31,163 bases of DNA from a virus. Lineage: Duplodnaviria; Heunggongvirae; Uroviricota; Caudoviricetes. The notes below the pieces were generated by a model, which searched no databases, had not been told where the DNA came from, and saw only the letters and a program-made list of their open reading frames with translations. Shown in pieces: positions 1-26,276 of the stretch (position 1 is the first letter of the stretch; each line of letters starts with the position of its first letter). The stretch is from the IMG/VR virus record IMGVR_UViG_2541047775_000006; one strand, 5' to 3'. Both the position numbers and the translations under genes were made by a program.

Positions 1-342
1 ATCCAGAAAACGGGCGTAAACCTTACGCCTGACCACCGTTCCGCCGACCAGACTCTGCAGGTCTTCCGCCATCCCGGTGACCATGCCGTGCAGATTAGAG
101 ACTTTCAGCGTTGGCCTTGCACTGGCTCCTTTGCCGTTCATCTCAAATCCACTTCCCTGAATGGGATAGGCCTGATACTGCCGCCCCTGCCAGGTGACTG
201 GTTCACCTTTTTCGTTCTGCTCATTACAGAAGAAATAACGATCTCCGCCGACCTCTGTCAGATCAATTTCCCAGAGCACGACCAGCGCGGATTGCTCCGT
301 TTTAGTGCACTCATTGAGTGTTTCCTGCTGTATATCCTGCAT
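1..342 (-). CDS. minor tail protein L (lambda gpL-like), 3' end cut by window edge
   Basis: Minus-strand ATG at 342 (TGATG overlap with upstream stop) translates MQDIQQETLNECTKTEQSALVVLWEIDLTEVGGDRYFFCNEQNEKGEPVTWQGRQ..., matching my recollection of the lambda L N-terminus. ORF runs off position 1, so it is absent from the ORF track. Confidence 0.8.
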   Translation of the reverse strand, partial: MQDIQQETLNECTKTEQSALVVLWEIDLTEVGGDRYFFCNEQNEKGEPVTWQGRQYQAYPIQGSGFEMNGKGASARPTLKVSNLHGMVTGMAEDLQSLVGGTVVRRKVYARFLD

Positions 343-683
343 CAGTGAGTGACCTCTTCAAAGGTACAGTTAAAATCGGTATACATGGCATTATCCGAAA
401 TGCTCCACTCCCTGCAGACAACCCGGACAGTCCTGTTGTGTTTTGGCGGACGCCACAAAAAAGCACGAACCCCGGCATGACGGGATAAAAAACTGTCCAG
501 CGCGGCACGGGAATATTCATCCGTGACACGAAATACCGGTTTAAACGTTTTCAGATCTGCATTCAGACCACCAGCCCGTCGCTGTTCATATCCGTCACCG
601 AACTTTACCGTAATAACAGATGGCTTTCGTGTCGTCTCCATCCCCTCGCGGGGGATCCAGTTAAAAACTTCAGACTCAGGCAC
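342..683 (-). CDS. minor tail protein M (lambda gpM-like)
   Basis: Track ORF 342..728 contains KPSVITVKFGDGYEQRRAGGLNADLKTF..FLWRPP, resembling lambda M. Probable GTG start at 683 preceded by GGAGG; the track start at 728 is a TTG that would overlap the tape measure by 50 nt. Confidence 0.8.
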   Translation of the reverse strand: MPESEVFNWIPREGMETTRKPSVITVKFGDGYEQRRAGGLNADLKTFKPVFRVTDEYSRAALDSFLSRHAGVRAFLWRPPKHNRTVRVVCREWSISDNAMYTDFNCTFEEVTH

Positions 684-3600
684 TGCATAATCCTCCGTCC
701 CGACGTGATGACTGCATAATTGACACAACCCTGCTGTCGATCAGATCCACCAGTCCCTTGGCTGACTGCGTATCTATCTCGCCATTGCTCCCTTTATTCT
801 GAATACTGATGTGATATACGGGAGAATAAACAAATCCACCGCCACCATTCACATTGCCAATGGCTCTGACTCCAAGAGAGCCGTCCGCTGCCCGAGTCAG
901 TGGCATGATAGCTTCAGGCCCGGCCTCGCCCATCAGCCCGGCACCTTTCGCAAAAGCAAAATACGTCGGGGTATCCACAATGGTGTTACTGTAAGCACTC
1001 AGATTTGCCGATGTATAAACACCACCTTTTGCGTTTGCCACTGCACCGGAAAGCCAGTCGCCGACTGTACCAAGCCATCCTCCGGCACCGGACATGCTTT
1101 TGGAAAGTGACTTCAGCCCGTTAACGATGGCAGCGTTCATCAGAATTTTTGAAACTTCCTGGAGAATTGAACTCCCCCAGTTTCTCCAGTCCACAACATT
1201 TCCGGCCAGTGCATCGGAAATATTTGATACCAGCCCGTCCATAGTGGAAACGACAGCATCTGCCGCCTGCGAAGCATAATCGGTGGCACTGTCTGCCCAG
1301 TTCGTCAGTCCCTCCTGGAGTCCGGCATTCCAGTTACTGCGTAAAGCATCAGCCTTTGCATAATAATCCTGCTGATCGCTGAGACGCTCTTCCAGATATT
1401 TTTCATTCAGAGATTTTTCCTGTTTCCACAGGGCTTCTTCAATTTCTCCGGCCTGATACTGTCTCAGTAGCTCGTTATTTTTCTGCTCAAACTCCTGCCG
1501 GATGCTCCACATTTCCTGAAGTCGTTCACGCATCCGTGAGCCTTCACCATATCCCAGTAACTGAGCCTCATTTGATGCTCTGACACTGGCATTACTGTCC
1601 GCCAGACTGCTCTCATACGCAGCAAGCTGCTCACGAATCTTTTTCTGGTCGATGAGTGCTGCATTCTGCAAAAGCGTTTTTTTCTGCGCTTCTGACAGGG
1701 TTGATAATTCGCCCTGGCTGACCTGATATTTCATCTTAGCCAGTTCAGTATTCTGCCCTGCCAGTGCTATTTGCTCTTTTTGCTGTTTAATCAGTTGCTT
1801 ATAAGTATCTTCTATTTTTTCCGCTTCGGTCTTTTTATGCGCTTTGGGTTTATTTGCCTGGTTATTTCGCCATGCATCCAGTGAGTTATTTATATAATTC
1901 AGTCTTGCTGTCTGATACGCCTCTCCCACAAAGCCGAGATCATCCGCAGCATAACCCAGGCGGGCACGCTCACGAGCTTCCCCCTTCAGGCGGGACAGAG
2001 CCAGTTCGCGCTCGCTGTTATTCAGTGCGGTCTGCTGTTTATCATCCAGGGTTGCCTGTGGTAGCCGTAACGGTACATTCACCAGCCCCTGTCGCTGCTG
2101 AAGTAATTCATTACCGAGCCCGAGAAGGCGATTAAACTCGGTATGCTGCCCATTCATGATCAACAGGGACTGATACGCTTTGTTTTGTTCCGCTGCCTGT
2201 TGACGGATCAACGCCACCCGTCGCTCCTCCAGCCCGGCAAGCACATCCTGAATGGATTGCGCTTTGCCCTGCATTTGAGTGAGGCGAGACTGTTCAACTG
2301 CCAGTTGATTTGTTGCTTCTGCAAGCCCTTCTGTGACAGTTTTTACCGACGTCATGTGGTTAATCATAAAACCGTTATCGGTTGTCCAGCCCGGGTTTGC
2401 CAGCACATACTGATAGCCAGCAATTTTTTCCTGTAAGGATTTAATCTTACTTTTCTGCTCGTCAATTAACCTGTTTTGCTCCTTCAGTGCCTGTCGCGTC
2501 TTTTCCTCATTATCTGACGCTTCAGGAAGCGACATTGCCGACGTTTTCTGGCGAATTTCGTCGATTGTTGCGGCATACTGGCGTGCAGATTCTCTGGCCT
2601 GCTCCTGATTCTGATACATCGTGTACCAGGCCGCAGCCCCCAGCATGACGAGTCCCGGCACACCACCAACCAGCCCCAGCGCGCCACTTAATAAACGACT
2701 CCCCACTGACGTAACATTATTCAGCGTTGTCTGTGCCGCTGTTCTGGCCGCAATATTACGGGTAAGTGACACCTGGGCAGCTGTCAGCTTCGCTTCTGCT
2801 ACGGCCTGCCTTTCGGTACCGCGAGCAGCAACAACCGCCTGTTGCGCACGATAAACCGCCGCACGCGCCCTGGCGGTTGCTATCTGTGTCCCCCGAAGTT
2901 GCACTTCAGCAAGAGCCACTTCGTTTCTGGCTGCAGTAATTAATCCGGCAGTTGCAGATCCAGCAGACGACGCCATATTGCCAAAATATCGGGCTACCCC
3001 GACGGCAACCAGAGCACCAGCAGCGGTTGCCACGGTGTCAATATTGCCTGCAATACCATTCAGCACACCGGAGAGCGTCTTCGTCACTCCGCTTGCCTCG
3101 TTCGCACCACCAACCCAGGCCATAAAGGCGTTTTCAACTTTGGTTGCAGAGGATGAAACCGTATCAGGCATTGCTGCATATTCATCACGCAACGCCCCAA
3201 GCTGACTAATCAGTGCAGGAACAACCTTATCGGCGGTCAGTTTTCCGTTATCCGCCATGGCCTTCAGATCCTTACGGGCAACCCCCATTCCCGCAGCCAG
3301 CGCACGAATAACACGATCGCCGTTCTCATTCACCGAGTTAAACTCTTCACCGCGCAGCACTCCCTGCGCCAGTGCCTGACTGAACTGCGTGATCACCGAA
3401 CTGGCTTCTGCTGTACTGGCACCGGATAATTTCAGGCCCGTGGAGATCGCCTCGGTGACTTTCAGTACCTCCTCAGAACTGTAACCATACTCCCGCATGG
3501 AAGCTGCAGAACGGGCAAAAAGGCTGGCGTTATCAGAAAACGCCGTCCCCGTTCTCTGGCTGATCGCCATTAATTCACGCTGTGATGACTGAAAATCATC

Positions 3601-22410: not shown

Positions 22411-23048
22411 GCGTTAGTTTCTCCACAACCAGAAGCAATCGACGCCACGACGCCCGGAGCTGCACACTCGCGGGCGTTACTCTTTTCCGGCGCACAAAAA
22501 ACACGAAATAACAGTGTTAAATGCTCCTGCCACTTCGCCATTACTTGGTAGCTGTTCTCTTCGATTTGCTCACGCTCAGCCTGGTCAATAACTCCATCAG
22601 CAGTTGCCTTGCGTAAGTACTGGGAATGCTTGCCAATCCATTCTATTGACTCCATCAGCCGCTGATTAATGTCACCATTGTCAATGTCATCAATGACCAC
22701 CAGCGGCACAAACACCCCATTACTACGACGGGCTATTGCATCCGTTACATGCCTGGTACCACTGGCATCCTGTAAAACCATGGCCCACTCAAGTGGAAAA
22801 ATTTGATCCCCACCGCTACGCAGTCTGTTATGCAATTGATCTTTTGCTGGGGTGATATCATCAGATTTATACAAACCAAGAATTTCTGCTGCTTCCTCAT
22901 AGCCATGAGGTAAATCAGCAATCGTTCTTCGTATTGCTGCCACCAGCCATGCTGGTTGCTTATCAACTTTCCATTCAGGTTCTTTACCCACGTTTAAGCC
23001 CTCATATCTGTGGTTTCTGTAAATCGATTTATCCATTAGATTTTTCAT
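22407..23048 (-). CDS. early regulatory protein at the cII position (function unassigned)
   Basis: Probable ATG at 23048 ([13 protein letters not shown]...), just 5' of the cro stop; track ORF start 23105 would overlap cro by 77 nt. Confidence 0.55.
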
Positions 23049-23229
23049 AAAGCTCAGGTTTAAATGGCAACCGTCCGCAAGTTCTATATGCAGCCTCTGC
23101 TGCACGTCCTTTTGGAATTAACTGGCCAGGACGGTTTCGCCACTGATAAACGGCTTCAGTTGTTATGCCGAAAAAAGCAGCAACTTTCTCAATGCTGCCG
23201 AAGTAGCTTTCGATATCGTCAGTCGTCAT
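23029..23229 (-). CDS. cro: Cro-like HTH repressor
   Basis: 66 aa, divergent from cI across a 97-bp operator region; HTH-like segment VAAFFGITTEAVYQWRNR. Confidence 0.7.
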   Translation of the reverse strand: MTTDDIESYFGSIEKVAAFFGITTEAVYQWRNRPGQLIPKGRAAEAAYRTCGRLPFKPELYEKSNG

Positions 23230-23326
23230 ATGCCCTCCAAACTAAGTTTTATTAGATGTTAATTATCAATCTATCTTAGGTCAATAAAAACTAAGATTAC
23301 TTAGTAATTAAAGAAATGGTGCTCCT
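23230..23326. promoter_or_regulatory. OR-like operator/promoter region (divergent cro and cI promoters)
   Basis: Three 16-bp operator-like sites sharing half-site ACTAAG/CTTAGT: ACTAAGTTTTATTAGA (23241..23256), CTTAGgtcaataaaaaCTAAG (23276..23296), ACTAAGATTACTTAGT (23290..23305). Confidence 0.65.
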
Positions 23327-23953
23327 ATGGAAACGGTTGGTCAGCGTATAAAAGCTCTGAGAAGAGTTACCAGAACGTCCCAGAAAGAATTGGGTAAATT
23401 TTGTGGAGTAAGTGACGTTGCTGTGGGGTACTGGGAGAAAGACATCAATGTCCCTGGTGGGGAAGCACTTTCAAAATTAGCGAAGTTCTTCAATACGTCA
23501 ATAGATTACATTCTTTATGGTGCGGAGTTTGAAGGCAAACTCGTCACAAACATGCGCAGAGTTCCTGTAATCTCGTGGGTTCAGGCTGGGCAGTTTACTG
23601 AGTGCAGGACAGCAGAAGTGTTTAGTGAAGTAGACAAGTGGGTAGATACATCATTAAAGATTGGTGATAACTCATTTGCATTGGAGGTTAAAGGCGACTC
23701 CATGACTAACCCTAACGGCCTCCCAACAATACCAGAAGGCGCAACAGTGATTGTAGATCCTGATGCAGAACCCCGGCATGGAAAAATAGTCATCGCTAGA
23801 CTTGATGGAACAAACGAAGCCACAGTAAAAAAATTAGTTATCGATGGCCCTCAAAAGTTTTTAGTGCCATTAAATCCCCGGTACCCCAACATCCCGATCA
23901 ATGGTAATTGCCTCATCATTGGTGTAGTCAAAGGAGTTCAATACGAACTCTAG
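23327..23953 (+). CDS. cI: CI-like repressor (HTH_XRE plus S24 LexA-like peptidase)
   Basis: 208 aa; N-terminal HTH (QKELGKFCGVSDVAVGYWEKD), C-terminal peptidase with Ser in GDSM and Lys in VKKL; GGTGCTCCT ATG. Confidence 0.9.
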   Translation: METVGQRIKALRRVTRTSQKELGKFCGVSDVAVGYWEKDINVPGGEALSKLAKFFNTSIDYILYGAEFEGKLVTNMRRVPVISWVQAGQFTECRTAEVFSEVDKWVDTSLKIGDNSFALEVKGDSMTNPNGLPTIPEGATVIVDPDAEPRHGKIVIARLDGTNEATVKKLVIDGPQKFLVPLNPRYPNIPINGNCLIIGVVKGVQYEL

Positions 23954-23972
23954 CCCCCCCTTTTCTCTAACC

Positions 23973-24006
23973 AAAACACCGAACTAAGAAAAGTTTGGTG
24001 TTTTCT
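23973..24006 (+). terminator. terminator-like hairpin after cI
   Basis: AAAACACC...GGTGTTTT, an 8-bp stem followed by CTCTT, about 20 nt after the cI stop. Confidence 0.45.
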
Positions 24007-24017
24007 CTTGCCATTAA

Positions 24018-24033
24018 AACTAAGTTAAGTTAG
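24018..24033. promoter_or_regulatory. OL-like operator site (ACTAAGTTAAGTTAGA), possible pL region
   Basis: 16-bp site matching the OR half-site pattern; possible -35 TTGCCA (24009..24014) and -10 TAGATT overlapping it, directed to the plus strand. Confidence 0.4.
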
Positions 24034-24142
24034 ATTTTATATCAAAGATAACGAACAGGCAGGACGCCCACGAAGTAGCCGCCTGGGGCATATGAAGTCC
24101 AGGATGATTCGTTAGTACCAAAAAAGCGCCCTACCGGACGCT

Positions 24143-24175
24143 TCGCTCTTTAAAAATCAGTAACCCTCACTTTGG
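24143..24175 (+). promoter_or_regulatory. boxA-like motif with short downstream hairpin (nutL-like)
   Basis: CGCTCTTTAAAAAT resembles lambda nutL boxA CGCTCTTAAAAATT and rrn boxA (from memory); followed 11 nt later by CCCtcacttTGGG. Confidence 0.35.
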
Positions 24176-24309
24176 GCCTGGATCTGGTGGCCTGGGACGA
24201 GGTGGAATATGAAAAGGCTCTATTGGTCGACTCATTATCCAATCCTATTATGTCTCATTTCTTCGGTTTCGGTGGTTTCGGCTTCGGAGGTACATGTCCG
24301 TGAACTGGA

Positions 24310-24804
24310 TTATGCTTGTTGGTCATCATTAATATCCGTTAGTTCATTCTCTAGAGGTAGATCTCCCGCACACCAAGCTATAAATTTTTCTTTGGTTGTT
24401 AAATCGTACTTAGTTGGAACACCAGCAAAAATACAGGCCCGAATGAAAGCCGCTCGTTCAAGTGATTTCCATGGATTACTATCAGTATCTTGGATTTTTA
24501 AATACCTAGCTTGCAACTGATCTTCAGGAAGGGTATCAGACTCAATCAGCAGTCTTTTGTAATGCCTCGCTTGCTCTTTAGACATTCCAGCCTCTTGGCC
24601 AAACTGATAGACCAACTGAAGAACCGAAAGTACGGCAACAAACAAACCGAAAATAAATAAATTACTGTACGGGGCGAAAACTGAAAAACCGAGAACGATT
24701 AACATCAACGTTATTAATTTATCAATGCGAGTTAACAACGTGTAATTCATCTTCTCCAATACATAAGAGTAGTGAACATAAAATTTATAATCGTCTCTGG
24801 TCAT
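24310..24804 (-). CDS. unrecognised membrane protein, convergent to cI (candidate exclusion/defence moron)
   Basis: 164-aa uninterrupted ORF in AT-rich DNA; hydrophobic segments LITLMLIVLGFSVFAPYSNLFIFGLFVAVLSVLQLVYQF, then a charged soluble C-terminal domain. No family recognised by eye. Confidence 0.6.
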   Translation of the reverse strand: MTRDDYKFYVHYSYVLEKMNYTLLTRIDKLITLMLIVLGFSVFAPYSNLFIFGLFVAVLSVLQLVYQFGQEAGMSKEQARHYKRLLIESDTLPEDQLQARYLKIQDTDSNPWKSLERAAFIRACIFAGVPTKYDLTTKEKFIAWCAGDLPLENELTDINDDQQA

Positions 24805-24905
24805 ATTAGTCTCAGTTTTCCTTGGGTGGTTTTGGAGGAACTGGAGGCTTTTGTCTTAACGGCACATGCCTCTCCTCATACTTATCTACACATAGATCCA
24901 TATAA

Positions 24906-25053
24906 ATCCTTATCGTTGTTGGGGAGGGTTACATAATAACCAAATCCTTGTTGTTGGGGAATAACCAGGTCCACCTCGCCTGATGTGGCTAAAAGCAGGC
25001 ACATAACAGCTAAGTATTTTCAACCAGAGAGAATCCTTAGCGTTGTGGTGAAT
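24906..25053. repeat. three imperfect approx. 20-bp direct repeats flanking a 15-bp palindrome
   Basis: ATCCTTATCGTTGTTGGGGA (24906), ATCCTTGTTGTTGGGGA (24944), ATCCTTAGCGTTGTGGTGA (25033); palindrome GGTTACATAATAACC (24927..24941). Confidence 0.6.
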
Positions 25054-25193
25054 GCGCAGGCTGATGCGCGAAAGACATTGCAGCTATTGCGGAAAAGAGC
25101 TGTTCGGCGGGGCAATTAAACGCCCGTGAGAGTCTGAAATAACCGCAAGCCGGAGATCAGCACCGGTCACCACAACAGCCACTGCTTTGGCGG

Positions 25194-25322
25194 TACCAGT
25201 TTGTACACTTGCTTCCGGCTGGTACCGCTCTTTTTACAAAACAGAGAAGAGCATCACCGGACGACGGGCTCATAACCCAATCCATCCGGGCGGCTGCCAC
25301 CGCAGGTGTTCTTCTCTGTTTT
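25194..25322 (+). promoter_or_regulatory. structured leader of early-left operon: hairpin, boxA-like motif, long stem-loop
   Basis: GGTACCAG...CTGGTACC (25194..25228) followed by GCTCTTTTTACAAAA (boxA-like), then a perfect 13-bp inverted repeat AAAACAGAGAAGA / TCTTCTCTGTTTT (25238..25250 and 25310..25322) enclosing a GC-rich 59-nt loop, ending about 35 nt before the rdgC-like ATG. Confidence 0.5.
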
Positions 25323-25358
25323 GTGGAGAAACTAATACATTGTGCAGAGGAAAATAGA

Positions 25359-26276
25359 ATGAAATTACCAAAATTTCGTAACGCAATTGTGTACCGAGCA
25401 ACATTACCTAGTATACAGGCTATTGAAGGTCATCTTCTCGAACTCCCTTATTCTGAAATCGGGGAAACAGAATTTTCACGGTCCTCTTTTGTAGAGAATC
25501 CTGTCACTGGTGAACTGGTAACTCCGATATCTGGTGGGTACGCAATGGTAATCCGTCATGATCAGAAAATAATTCCCCGACATGTCGTCATGAAAGAAGC
25601 TAATTCTCGAATCCAAACAATCGAAAATATGTCCGGGAATAAATTAAAGCGTGCCGAACGACTGGCCATTATTGATAACGTACGAGTAGATCTATGCAAA
25701 CAGGCATTTGTTAAGTCTACGCTGATTCTTGCATTGTACAGCACTGATGAGAAATTATTGGTAATCAACACAACCAATAAAATAATAGCCGGTATGGTAT
25801 GCGCAATGCTGATTAAGGTTGTCGGTTCAGTGAAAACAGAAACAATCAACATCAGTGATATCAAGAATGGACTGACTACACGCCTGAATAACTACATCAA
25901 TGGTGCAGCCAATGCATTTGAAGGATTCACTGTCGGAAATTATATTCAGCTATCACGCTACGCAGATCAAAAGGAAATTATTCGCTACTCAGCTGAGCAT
26001 GAGTCAATTCAAAGCGAACTGGCCGATAGCCTTAGTAGTAGTTTCACTGCTGATAAAATGGAGTTATCCGGTTGCGGTGTGACCTTCATTCTTACCGAAA
26101 ATTTCCATTTTTCGCGCATCAATACTCAATCTCAGACATTTAATGATGAAGATGATAAAGCATTCCAGTGGCGTCATCAGACTGGCGCTGACCTTTTCCA
26201 ATTCAGCAAGGTAGTTAATTTGATGTGTGACCTTCTTTCTTACAAAGAAGATAAAAGCCAAAATCCAACAACTTAA
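25359..26276 (+). CDS. RdgC-like recombination-associated protein
   Basis: ATG at 25359 with GAGG SD gives MKLPKFRNAIVYRATLP... (RdgC begins MLWFKNLMVYRL as I recall); central VIRHDQKIIPRHVVMKEA...KLKRAERLA parallels RdgC. Track ORF start 25209 lies inside the leader hairpin. Confidence 0.6.
   Translation: MKLPKFRNAIVYRATLPSIQAIEGHLLELPYSEIGETEFSRSSFVENPVTGELVTPISGGYAMVIRHDQKIIPRHVVMKEANSRIQTIENMSGNKLKRAERLAIIDNVRVDLCKQAFVKSTLILALYSTDEKLLVINTTNKIIAGMVCAMLIKVVGSVKTETINISDIKNGLTTRLNNYINGAANAFEGFTVGNYIQLSRYADQKEIIRYSAEHESIQSELADSLSSSFTADKMELSGCGVTFILTENFHFSRINTQSQTFNDEDDKAFQWRHQTGADLFQFSKVVNLMCDLLSYKEDKSQNPTT

Follow-up and report, generated by a model that had tools for sequence, protein, structure and literature searches.

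SLATT proteins are toxic effectors in DRT10, CBASS and RADAR. They are about 150-180 amino acids (aa) long, combine an N-terminal helix, a hairpin of two transmembrane (TM) helices with a very short outer loop, and cytoplasmic helices, and occur on mobile elements in conflict contexts. SieB, a membrane protein, is produced from the prophage and acts by aborting phages that superinfect. Its gene lies antisense within the pL operon near the immunity region (lambda sieB, 34482..35036 (+), is inside the leftward pL operon), and P22 sieB is also under translational regulation. RexB, the membrane component of the RexAB abortive-infection system, is expressed in the lysogen from a gene next to cI. 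Finally, in hok/mok and mgtL/mgtP a short leader open reading frame (ORF) abuts or overlaps the ribosome-binding site of a membrane-protein gene. Here, we compare these systems with a small cassette in a 31,163-nucleotide (nt) stretch of DNA from a virus of the Caudoviricetes (IMG/VR record IMGVR_UViG_2541047775_000006; the whole stretch is called the window below). The cassette encodes a 164-aa membrane protein, the main protein, between cI and the early-left operon on the opposite strand.

The cassette is a conserved two-gene unit that encodes a 29-aa micro-protein and the 164-aa two-helix membrane protein. In homology SLATT is its closest family, and in position and logic lambda/P22 sieB is its closest gene. 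The likeness to SLATT proteins covers size, helical layout and genetic setting, and profile and structure matches recur but are weak. However, the family falls below every curated SLATT threshold, and the cassette lacks an adjacent CD-NTase, SLOG, TIR or reverse transcriptase gene and has a proline-rich micro-ORF instead. With SieB the likeness is one of arrangement, although SieB has an internal esc start where the cassette has a separate upstream micro-ORF. Homology to SieB was rejected: hhalign gave a probability of 0.5% for the main protein against lambda SieB, and the query does not match PF14163, which lambda SieB itself matches at 1e-29. A relationship to RexB was likewise rejected, as hhalign found no similarity. 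The cassette would resemble RexB in being a lysogen-expressed membrane component next to cI, whereas RexB has four TM helices, needs RexA, and is co-transcribed with cI upstream of pL. As in mgtL/mgtP-type arrangements, the proline-rich leader could make expression sensitive to elongation factor P (EF-P) or to the translation state. Unlike in hok/mok and mgtL/mgtP, no conserved RNA switch was found and the peptide sequence is itself conserved; moreover, the downstream protein is far larger than type I toxins.

A micro-ORF upstream of a membrane-protein gene

The main gene is real. An ORF of its length arose in 1 of 2000 shuffles of the 1.4-kb cI-rdgC stretch, and a chance ORF was rejected on this rate. 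The product, WP_001513551.1, is labelled "hypothetical protein" in RefSeq, and the name is "hypothetical" throughout RefSeq, PLSDB and phage records. The main protein has 72 close homologues in Enterobacterales, and a profile search enlarged the family to at least 221 clusters at 50% identity, all of them single-domain proteins of about 150-180 aa. An alignment of 28 homologues (53-90% identity) contains 42 invariant columns, and the gene is clearly under selection.

Hydropathy places two hydrophobic segments at residues ~29-45 and ~48-66, linked by the uncharged four-residue loop PYSN and with lysine or arginine (K/R) at both ends of the pair. In the AlphaFold2 model two long helices (3-41, 48-88) form a hairpin, and four short helices come after it (predicted local distance difference test score 74, predicted TM-score 0.66). 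Both methods support a two-TM hairpin, which is predicted to be N-in/C-in. The last 98 residues carry a net acidic charge (12 K/R vs 17 aspartate or glutamate), and the protein showed no features of a signal peptide, an enzyme or an adhesin. The gene is low in GC (0.378); the whole window has a GC content of 0.496 and the structural region one of 0.512. An earlier note on this DNA had described a 164-aa ORF opposite to cI and the early-left operon, with N-terminal hydrophobic segments and a charged C-terminal domain, in AT-rich DNA. That description holds: the ORF lies at exactly the stated coordinates and starts with ATG, and the TM topology it had proposed to check proved to be a two-TM hairpin by hydropathy. 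The note had also taken the locus to encode a single protein, and here it overlooked the conserved micro-ORF.

Class II holins are also small two-TM proteins (about 70-110 aa), but their genes share the lysis cassette with the endolysin gene. The main protein was rejected as a holin on both location and size: it has 164 aa with a cytoplasmic domain of ~95 aa, and its gene lies in the immunity/early region, antisense to the lytic operons. In the window, the reading frame continues past the main-gene stop (24260-24309 (-), ..SSSRTCTSEAETTETEE..). This extension is translated in some homologues (P0002, 186 aa; L023, 189 aa), and the C-terminal tail is therefore polymorphic by gain or loss of a stop codon.

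The micro-ORF lies directly upstream of the main gene on the same strand and ends 7 nt before its ATG. Equivalents were first spotted in Fels-2, Yersinia vB_YenM_42.18, Providencia PSTNGR2lys and "Elizabethkingia" EKP1, four phages in which the main protein shares 31-37% identity with the query. The micro-ORF is kept in 66 of 67 loci (64 from IMG/VR and 3 genome loci) and also accompanies a main-protein homologue of 26% identity. Its members share the consensus ..YEE[KR]H[MLV]P-x4-P-x-PPK, after which comes a short, charged and usually acidic tail. The spacing from the histidine to PPK is 12 in nearly all main-clade micro-ORFs, and indels are in frame. The median nonsynonymous value (pN) is 0.37 against a synonymous value (pS) of 0.85, with dN/dS about 0.35, while the N-terminus and tail are variable and the proline run lies 2-7 codons from the stop. 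We interpret the micro-ORF as a translated, selected peptide. The peptide has no PHROG match, and a literature search returned no paper that pairs SLATT with a proline-rich peptide.

The junction between the two genes reads cTGAGGTnnnnnATG in most loci, so that the Shine-Dalgarno sequence of the main gene overlaps the micro-ORF stop. Across loci the distance from this stop to the main ATG is 4-20 nt, mostly 7-8 nt. Translational coupling classically has this geometry.

What, then, does the micro-ORF contribute? A conserved RNA hairpin was not found at the junction, where shuffled sequences fold about as stably (z = 0.39), nor is there a common RNA structure at the micro-ORF/main-gene junction across 21 loci. 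A classic attenuator is therefore disfavoured. A frameshift or read-through product is excluded because the two ORFs keep no fixed relative frame, and a single occlusion model agrees poorly with the varying proline-to-stop distance. It is quite possible, if somewhat short of an even chance, that the micro-ORF is a cis-acting coupler or leader only and makes no functional peptide. The overlap of stop and Shine-Dalgarno in most loci, the variable ends of the peptide and its polyproline runs (PPP to PPPPP) all suit such a leader, and polyproline runs are EF-P-dependent stall sites. However, YEE[KR]H[MLV]P is kept well past the prolines, at a fixed spacing to PPK and under the constraint described above, and the variable proline-to-stop distance again weighs on the other side. 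The conserved non-proline motif would fit an arrest peptide or a ligand alike, and is thus compatible both with a leader that acts only in cis and with a functional peptide.

Distant similarity of the main-protein family to SLATT effectors

The main protein matches phrog_6315 at 9e-64. On its own it has no Pfam or NCBIfam match even at E=10 and none in PADLOC, and the similarity to SLATT comes from its relatives. When 92 diverse family members were scanned singly, NCBIfam SLATT_4 was the commonest match (41/92, best E 2.2e-5), followed by SLATT_1 (13/92) and then by a SLATT-containing mobilome CxxC family. These members cover SLATT_4 profile positions 24-129 of 154, beyond the TM hairpin alone. 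The family consensus matches SLATT_4 at 3.3e-5 and the PADLOC CBASS "2TM effector" model at 2.7e-4, and one family member matches RTasSLATT in PADLOC. Moreover, a Foldseek search of the AlphaFold2 model against the BFVD viral structures returned SLATT-named entries for 9 of the top 50, including ranks 1, 2, 4 and 5, and UniRef labels two main-protein homologues SLATT. The SLATT-type architecture, a TM hairpin with an N-terminal helix and C-terminal cytoplasmic helices, is present in the main protein.

However, the best SLATT_4 score is 24 bits against a curated cut-off of 55, and every curated cut-off is missed. The Foldseek matches to SLATT-named structures are weak as well (probability up to 0.93, E at least 0.18). 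A profile search with distant members against 5.8 billion proteins retrieved none with a precomputed SLATT Pfam domain, and the wider profile search yielded no above-threshold transitive link from the family to SLATT. We found no solved structure for the main-protein family or for any SLATT protein. The SLATT-like signals thus appear recurrent and come from several partly independent sources, but they are sub-threshold. Because all scores are far under the cut-offs and no SLATT-domain protein was retrieved, we describe the proteins as a divergent SLATT-like family and not as a demonstrated member. They probably form a SLATT-like branch nearest to SLATT_4. The earlier note had recognised no family; phrog_6315 and this consistent sub-threshold similarity to SLATT 2TM effectors now replace that view. 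Of the checks it had proposed, the AlphaFold/Foldseek comparison gave the SLATT-named matches but no significant E-value, and the defence catalogue PADLOC 2.0 holds no model for the main protein.

The operon offers no SMODS/CD-NTase, SLOG, TIR or reverse transcriptase partner. The sole same-strand neighbour of the main gene is the micro-ORF, and the cassette is flanked by phage regulatory or early genes that lie on the other strand. Lacking an enzymatic partner, a small inner-membrane protein could also act by non-lethal superinfection exclusion (Sie), blocking DNA entry or the receptor or channel of incoming phages without a suicide pore. P22 SieA, T4 Imm and HK97 gp15 are precedents. Non-lethal exclusion would agree with the position and expression logic, which are those of other prophage Sie genes, and with a SLATT similarity that stays sub-threshold. 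However, we consider it unlikely, since the conserved 80-residue cytoplasmic domain and the tight gating by a micro-ORF better fit a dangerous effector, and since the SLATT-like signals recur across independent libraries.

An antisense cargo slot in the early-left leader

An integrated lambdoid prophage that borders yecE in E. coli SCU-482, among others, matches the window at 100% identity, and the backbone of the window is that of an SfV/SfIV/ST64B/e14-like lambdoid E. coli prophage. The main gene is convergent with cI (23327..23953 (+)), whose product is of the helix-turn-helix plus S24 (S24/LexA) type, and rdgC, yfdR and the remaining early-left operon lie on the strand opposite to it. The coordinates of the cassette and of the elements around it are given in Table 1.

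Table 1. Coordinates of the cassette, its surroundings and alternative cargos. Positions are those of the window unless a comparison locus (L number) is named.
Feature	Position	Strand	Description
Main gene	24310..24804	(-)	ATG start, 164 aa; predicted inner-membrane two-TM hairpin and helical cytoplasmic C-domain
Coupling junction	24805..24814	(-)	Micro-ORF stop TGA at 24814..24812, 7 nt before main ATG
Micro-ORF	24812..24901	(-)	29 aa, proline-rich, MDLCVDKYEERHVPLRQKPPVPPKPPKEN; absent from RefSeq annotation
Shared cargo promoter/5' untranslated region module	24905..24970	(-)	Putative promoter
cI terminator hairpin	23973..24004	(+)	Immunity-gene boundary; z = -4.67
Probable pL and oL operator copy	24008..24036	(+)	TTGCCA-17-TAGATT; operator ACTAAGTTAAGTTAGA at 24019-24034
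Leader element	24050..24113	(+)	~60 nt, invariant, early-left transcript; slot context, outside the cassette
Intrinsic terminator of minus-strand cargo	24120..24144	(-)	9-bp GC-rich stem, GGUA loop, 6 U
Alternative cargos, SfIV, Kati, PhiR29_1	L002 3331-4028, L076 1053-1487, L078 1633-2361	(-)	Uncharacterised
Alternative cargos, mEp460_4F5, SfV	L077 1732-2100, L003 3091-3387	(+)	Uncharacterised

Where is pL? A promoter scan found a single good plus-strand sigma-70-like site between cI and rdgC, TTGCCA-17-TAGATT. In the cI-cro intergenic region, ACTAAG-N4-xTTAGx operators occur at 23241-56 and, as a perfect palindrome, at 23290-305, and a third copy sits within the sigma-70-like site, just past the cI terminator. 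At the corresponding position, relatives that carry other cI alleles show TTGACA-16-CATAAT together with repeated operators of their own. The stretch 23954-24050 co-varies with the cI allele. Stretch 24971-25358 is ~99% conserved in heteroimmune phages, including Stx phages, and therefore holds no cI-specific operators. pL thus probably coincides with the sigma-70-like site, which would place the cassette inside the pL leader in antisense orientation, and the pL transcript would probably run antisense through the cassette towards rdgC. The earlier note had anticipated an antisense relationship to pL, and the same layout is seen in heteroimmune relatives. It had also equated the position with that of rexAB; sieB, antisense inside the pL operon, is the better fit, as rexAB lies upstream of pL.

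The leader element follows the pL position in every phage compared, and it is conserved in heteroimmune phages (SfII, SfV, SfIV, ST64B, YeP1-3, phiNP and Pantoea AH07). A subset of these phages has a hairpin and a boxA-like CGCTCTTTAA (24144-24153 in the window) downstream of the element. A search of Rfam with positions 23000-26000 gave no match at E up to 1, and no second, putR-like copy of the element was found in the window. In ST64B, the noncoding RNA STnc1310 increases along with the lytic genes, as do the genes downstream of CI (PMC7067206). The leader element may equal STnc1310 of ST64B, or may be an antitermination (put/nut-like) leader. Upstream of rdgC, the region 25130-25345 (+) is predicted to fold into a very stable structure (minimum free energy -83 kcal/mol, z = -5.06). 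Within this region lie a plus-strand terminator-like hairpin (GCGGTACCAG..CTGGTACCGC, then TCTTTTT) and an inverted repeat with 25-bp arms. The region is unannotated and ~99% identical in many lambdoid and Stx phages. Because of this strong terminator-like hairpin, we suggest that the early-left genes need antitermination.

The predicted minus-strand terminator goes with minus-strand cargo. It was found only in the relatives with minus-strand cargo (the window, SfIV, PhiR29_1 and E. coli 97-3250) and is absent from SfV and ST64B. In its predicted fold the first three U of the 6-U run pair into the stem base. At the other end of the slot, the cargo module contains two CCCCAACAAC..AAGGATT repeats (24959..24942 and 24924..24904), which could bind some regulator, as well as a candidate -10 TATTAT (24938..24933) and the micro-ORF Shine-Dalgarno sequence AAGGA (24911..24907). 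The candidate -10 reads TATAAT in E. coli M10. The -35 is weak, and a promoter consensus scan found no strong site in the module. A third AAGGATT-type copy is present at 25032-25046, and a copy of the module itself occurs at locus L079 (2501-2555).

The module, 55-57 bp long, also precedes unrelated minus-strand cargos in 328 further complete E. coli genomes. In strain 97-3250 the cargo is a soluble coiled-coil/Zn-ribbon protein (phrog_1244, WP_000559922.1). These soluble cargos bear on whether the cassette might be a toxin module that serves the prophage itself, through hok/mok-like addiction or stabilisation or through control of its own lytic programme. In such a module the micro-ORF leader would license translation of the toxin, with pL transcription in antisense, or a separate antisense RNA, as the antidote. 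The leader ORF does overlap the ribosome-binding site of the toxin gene as in mok/hok, the cassette is antisense to a strong regulated promoter, and its main product is a small membrane protein. However, 164 aa and a folded cytoplasmic domain are unlike type I toxins, there is no conserved RNA structure around the junction, and unrelated soluble cargos behind the same upstream module point to a general cargo site. We therefore regard a prophage-serving toxin as improbable.

The slot is variable among close relatives. Alternative cargos fill it in SfIV, Kati, PhiR29_1, mEp460_4F5, SfV and 97-3250. The cargo of mEp460_4F5 has an HTH_17 domain and a weak PADLOC mad1 match. Searches of profile libraries including PADLOC gave no known defence annotation for the alternative cargos, and the label "defence hotspot" therefore stays conjectural for this slot. 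Of 5426 complete E. coli genomes, 51 carry the cassette at ≥95% identity and ~54 more have a diverged form, and the slot flanks are present in 2924 E. coli genomes. Such presence or absence at one site among close phage relatives suggests a moron, as the earlier note had proposed for a variable slot near cI. The predicted slot-specific terminator and the low GC content would agree with a moron, and the promoter is a candidate.

Morons often encode host-fitness functions, and the exact window protein occurs on at least 1000 contigs. A paralogue of the main protein is moreover fixed next to sopE2 in Salmonella. Both observations would suit a lysogenic-conversion cargo that acts outside phage conflict, for example in envelope stress tolerance or colonisation. 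However, the protein showed none of the signal-peptide, enzyme or adhesin features, its sole family resemblance is to immune effectors, and the cassette is in ~1-2% of complete E. coli genomes. We think a host-fitness factor very unlikely. The Salmonella paralogue (P0221, 158 aa, ~27% identity; L081/L082 4001-4477) has sopE2 and pphA-like genes as neighbours in an apparent prophage remnant, and it has no proline-rich micro-ORF. P0266, a member of the P0221 cluster of identical length, is on at least 1000 Salmonella contigs.

Beyond the window, the cassette occupies several kinds of locus. The lambdoid loci have a convergent S24 cI, with alleles of 30-100% identity, 300-600 bp downstream of the main gene. 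Two P2-like phages, Fels-2 and vB_YenM_42.18, carry the cassette antisense in the early operon, with cII/fil on one side and the replication genes on the other. The Providencia phage has it antisense inside its early-left operon, and EKP1 has it between Q and the holin gene. In all these loci an autonomous unit is set antisense to a lytic operon, a placement expected of a gene that is on in the lysogen and off in the phage's own lytic growth. In Fels-2 (L004 4001-4459 +) and vB_YenM_42.18 (L005 3983-4453 +) an annotated coding sequence runs opposite to the SLATT-like gene. These coding sequences, STM2733.1.Fels2 and vBYenM4218_008, are probably mis-called, and the real gene and its micro-ORF are unannotated there. 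A literature search returned nothing for STM2734. The gene content of EKP1, whose host is given as Elizabethkingia, is enterobacterial-lambdoid-like (a Q-like antiterminator, DUF4222 and a lambda-type lysis cassette), and the host assignment may deserve a check.

A possible mechanism and what it would mean

How might the cassette work? The analysis above shows its anatomy, conservation, position and coupling geometry. From there we infer lysogen-specific expression, a membrane-damaging activity, a trigger and an anti-phage role. We put at nearly even the chance that the cassette is a lysogen-expressed exclusion or abortive-infection module, with a membrane-permeabilising SLATT-like effector that is gated by the micro-ORF and extinguished by antisense pL transcription. 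In the lysogen, cI would silence pL, and the cassette would be transcribed from the promoter module of the slot, with transcription ending at the slot terminator before cI. Ribosomes would first translate the 29-aa proline-rich micro-ORF. Because the micro-ORF stop overlaps the ribosome-binding site of the main gene, synthesis of the 164-aa protein would be coupled to the micro-ORF and probably throttled by it, possibly via EF-P-sensitive polyproline pausing or by the peptide acting directly on the 164-aa protein.

On insertion into the inner membrane, the 164-aa protein would form a helical hairpin of N-in/C-in topology, its helical domain lying in the cytoplasm. A superinfecting phage would then trigger it, and the membrane would most likely be permeabilised or depolarised, as in SLATT 2TM effectors. 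Such damage would abort the infection or exclude the invader. Upon prophage induction, antisense pL transcription through the cassette should shut the cassette off.

A more specific form of this mechanism would make the micro-ORF a translation-state sensor that gates re-initiation at the overlapping ribosome-binding site of the gene for a pore-forming SLATT-like toxin, giving a minimal abortive-infection system. The nascent chain would be polyproline-containing or arrest-like, with the conserved H-x-P twelve residues upstream of PPK. The module would fire when a superinfecting phage perturbs host translation through EF-P, tRNA or the ribosome, and would be silenced by the antisense pL transcript of the prophage itself. 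We hold such a sensor to be a long shot.

The cassette overturns nothing. As a module it is widespread, compact and uncharacterised, with an unusual regulatory partner, and it is a good candidate for a lysogen-expressed anti-phage module. If it does act against phages, it would be a very compact system of about 600 bp that is common in Enterobacterales prophages and absent from PADLOC 2.0. It would also mean that a SLATT-like membrane effector can work without a nucleotide-signalling or reverse-transcriptase partner, the kind of partner by which the known systems are defined. A partnerless effector of this kind raises the question of its trigger, and the conserved, unannotated micro-protein offers a concrete, testable handle on that question. 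Should the micro-ORF indeed be a sensor, a solo SLATT-like effector armed by a leader peptide, in place of a nucleotide-signalling enzyme, would represent a new activation logic for the class.

The analysis also defines an antisense plug-in cargo slot in the pL leader of SfV/e14-like prophages, which combines a shared putative promoter module with a slot-specific terminator. The slot is present in roughly half of complete E. coli genomes and contains uncharacterised genes. Since it is widespread and filled with such genes, the slot is a ready place to mine new prophage-encoded functions.
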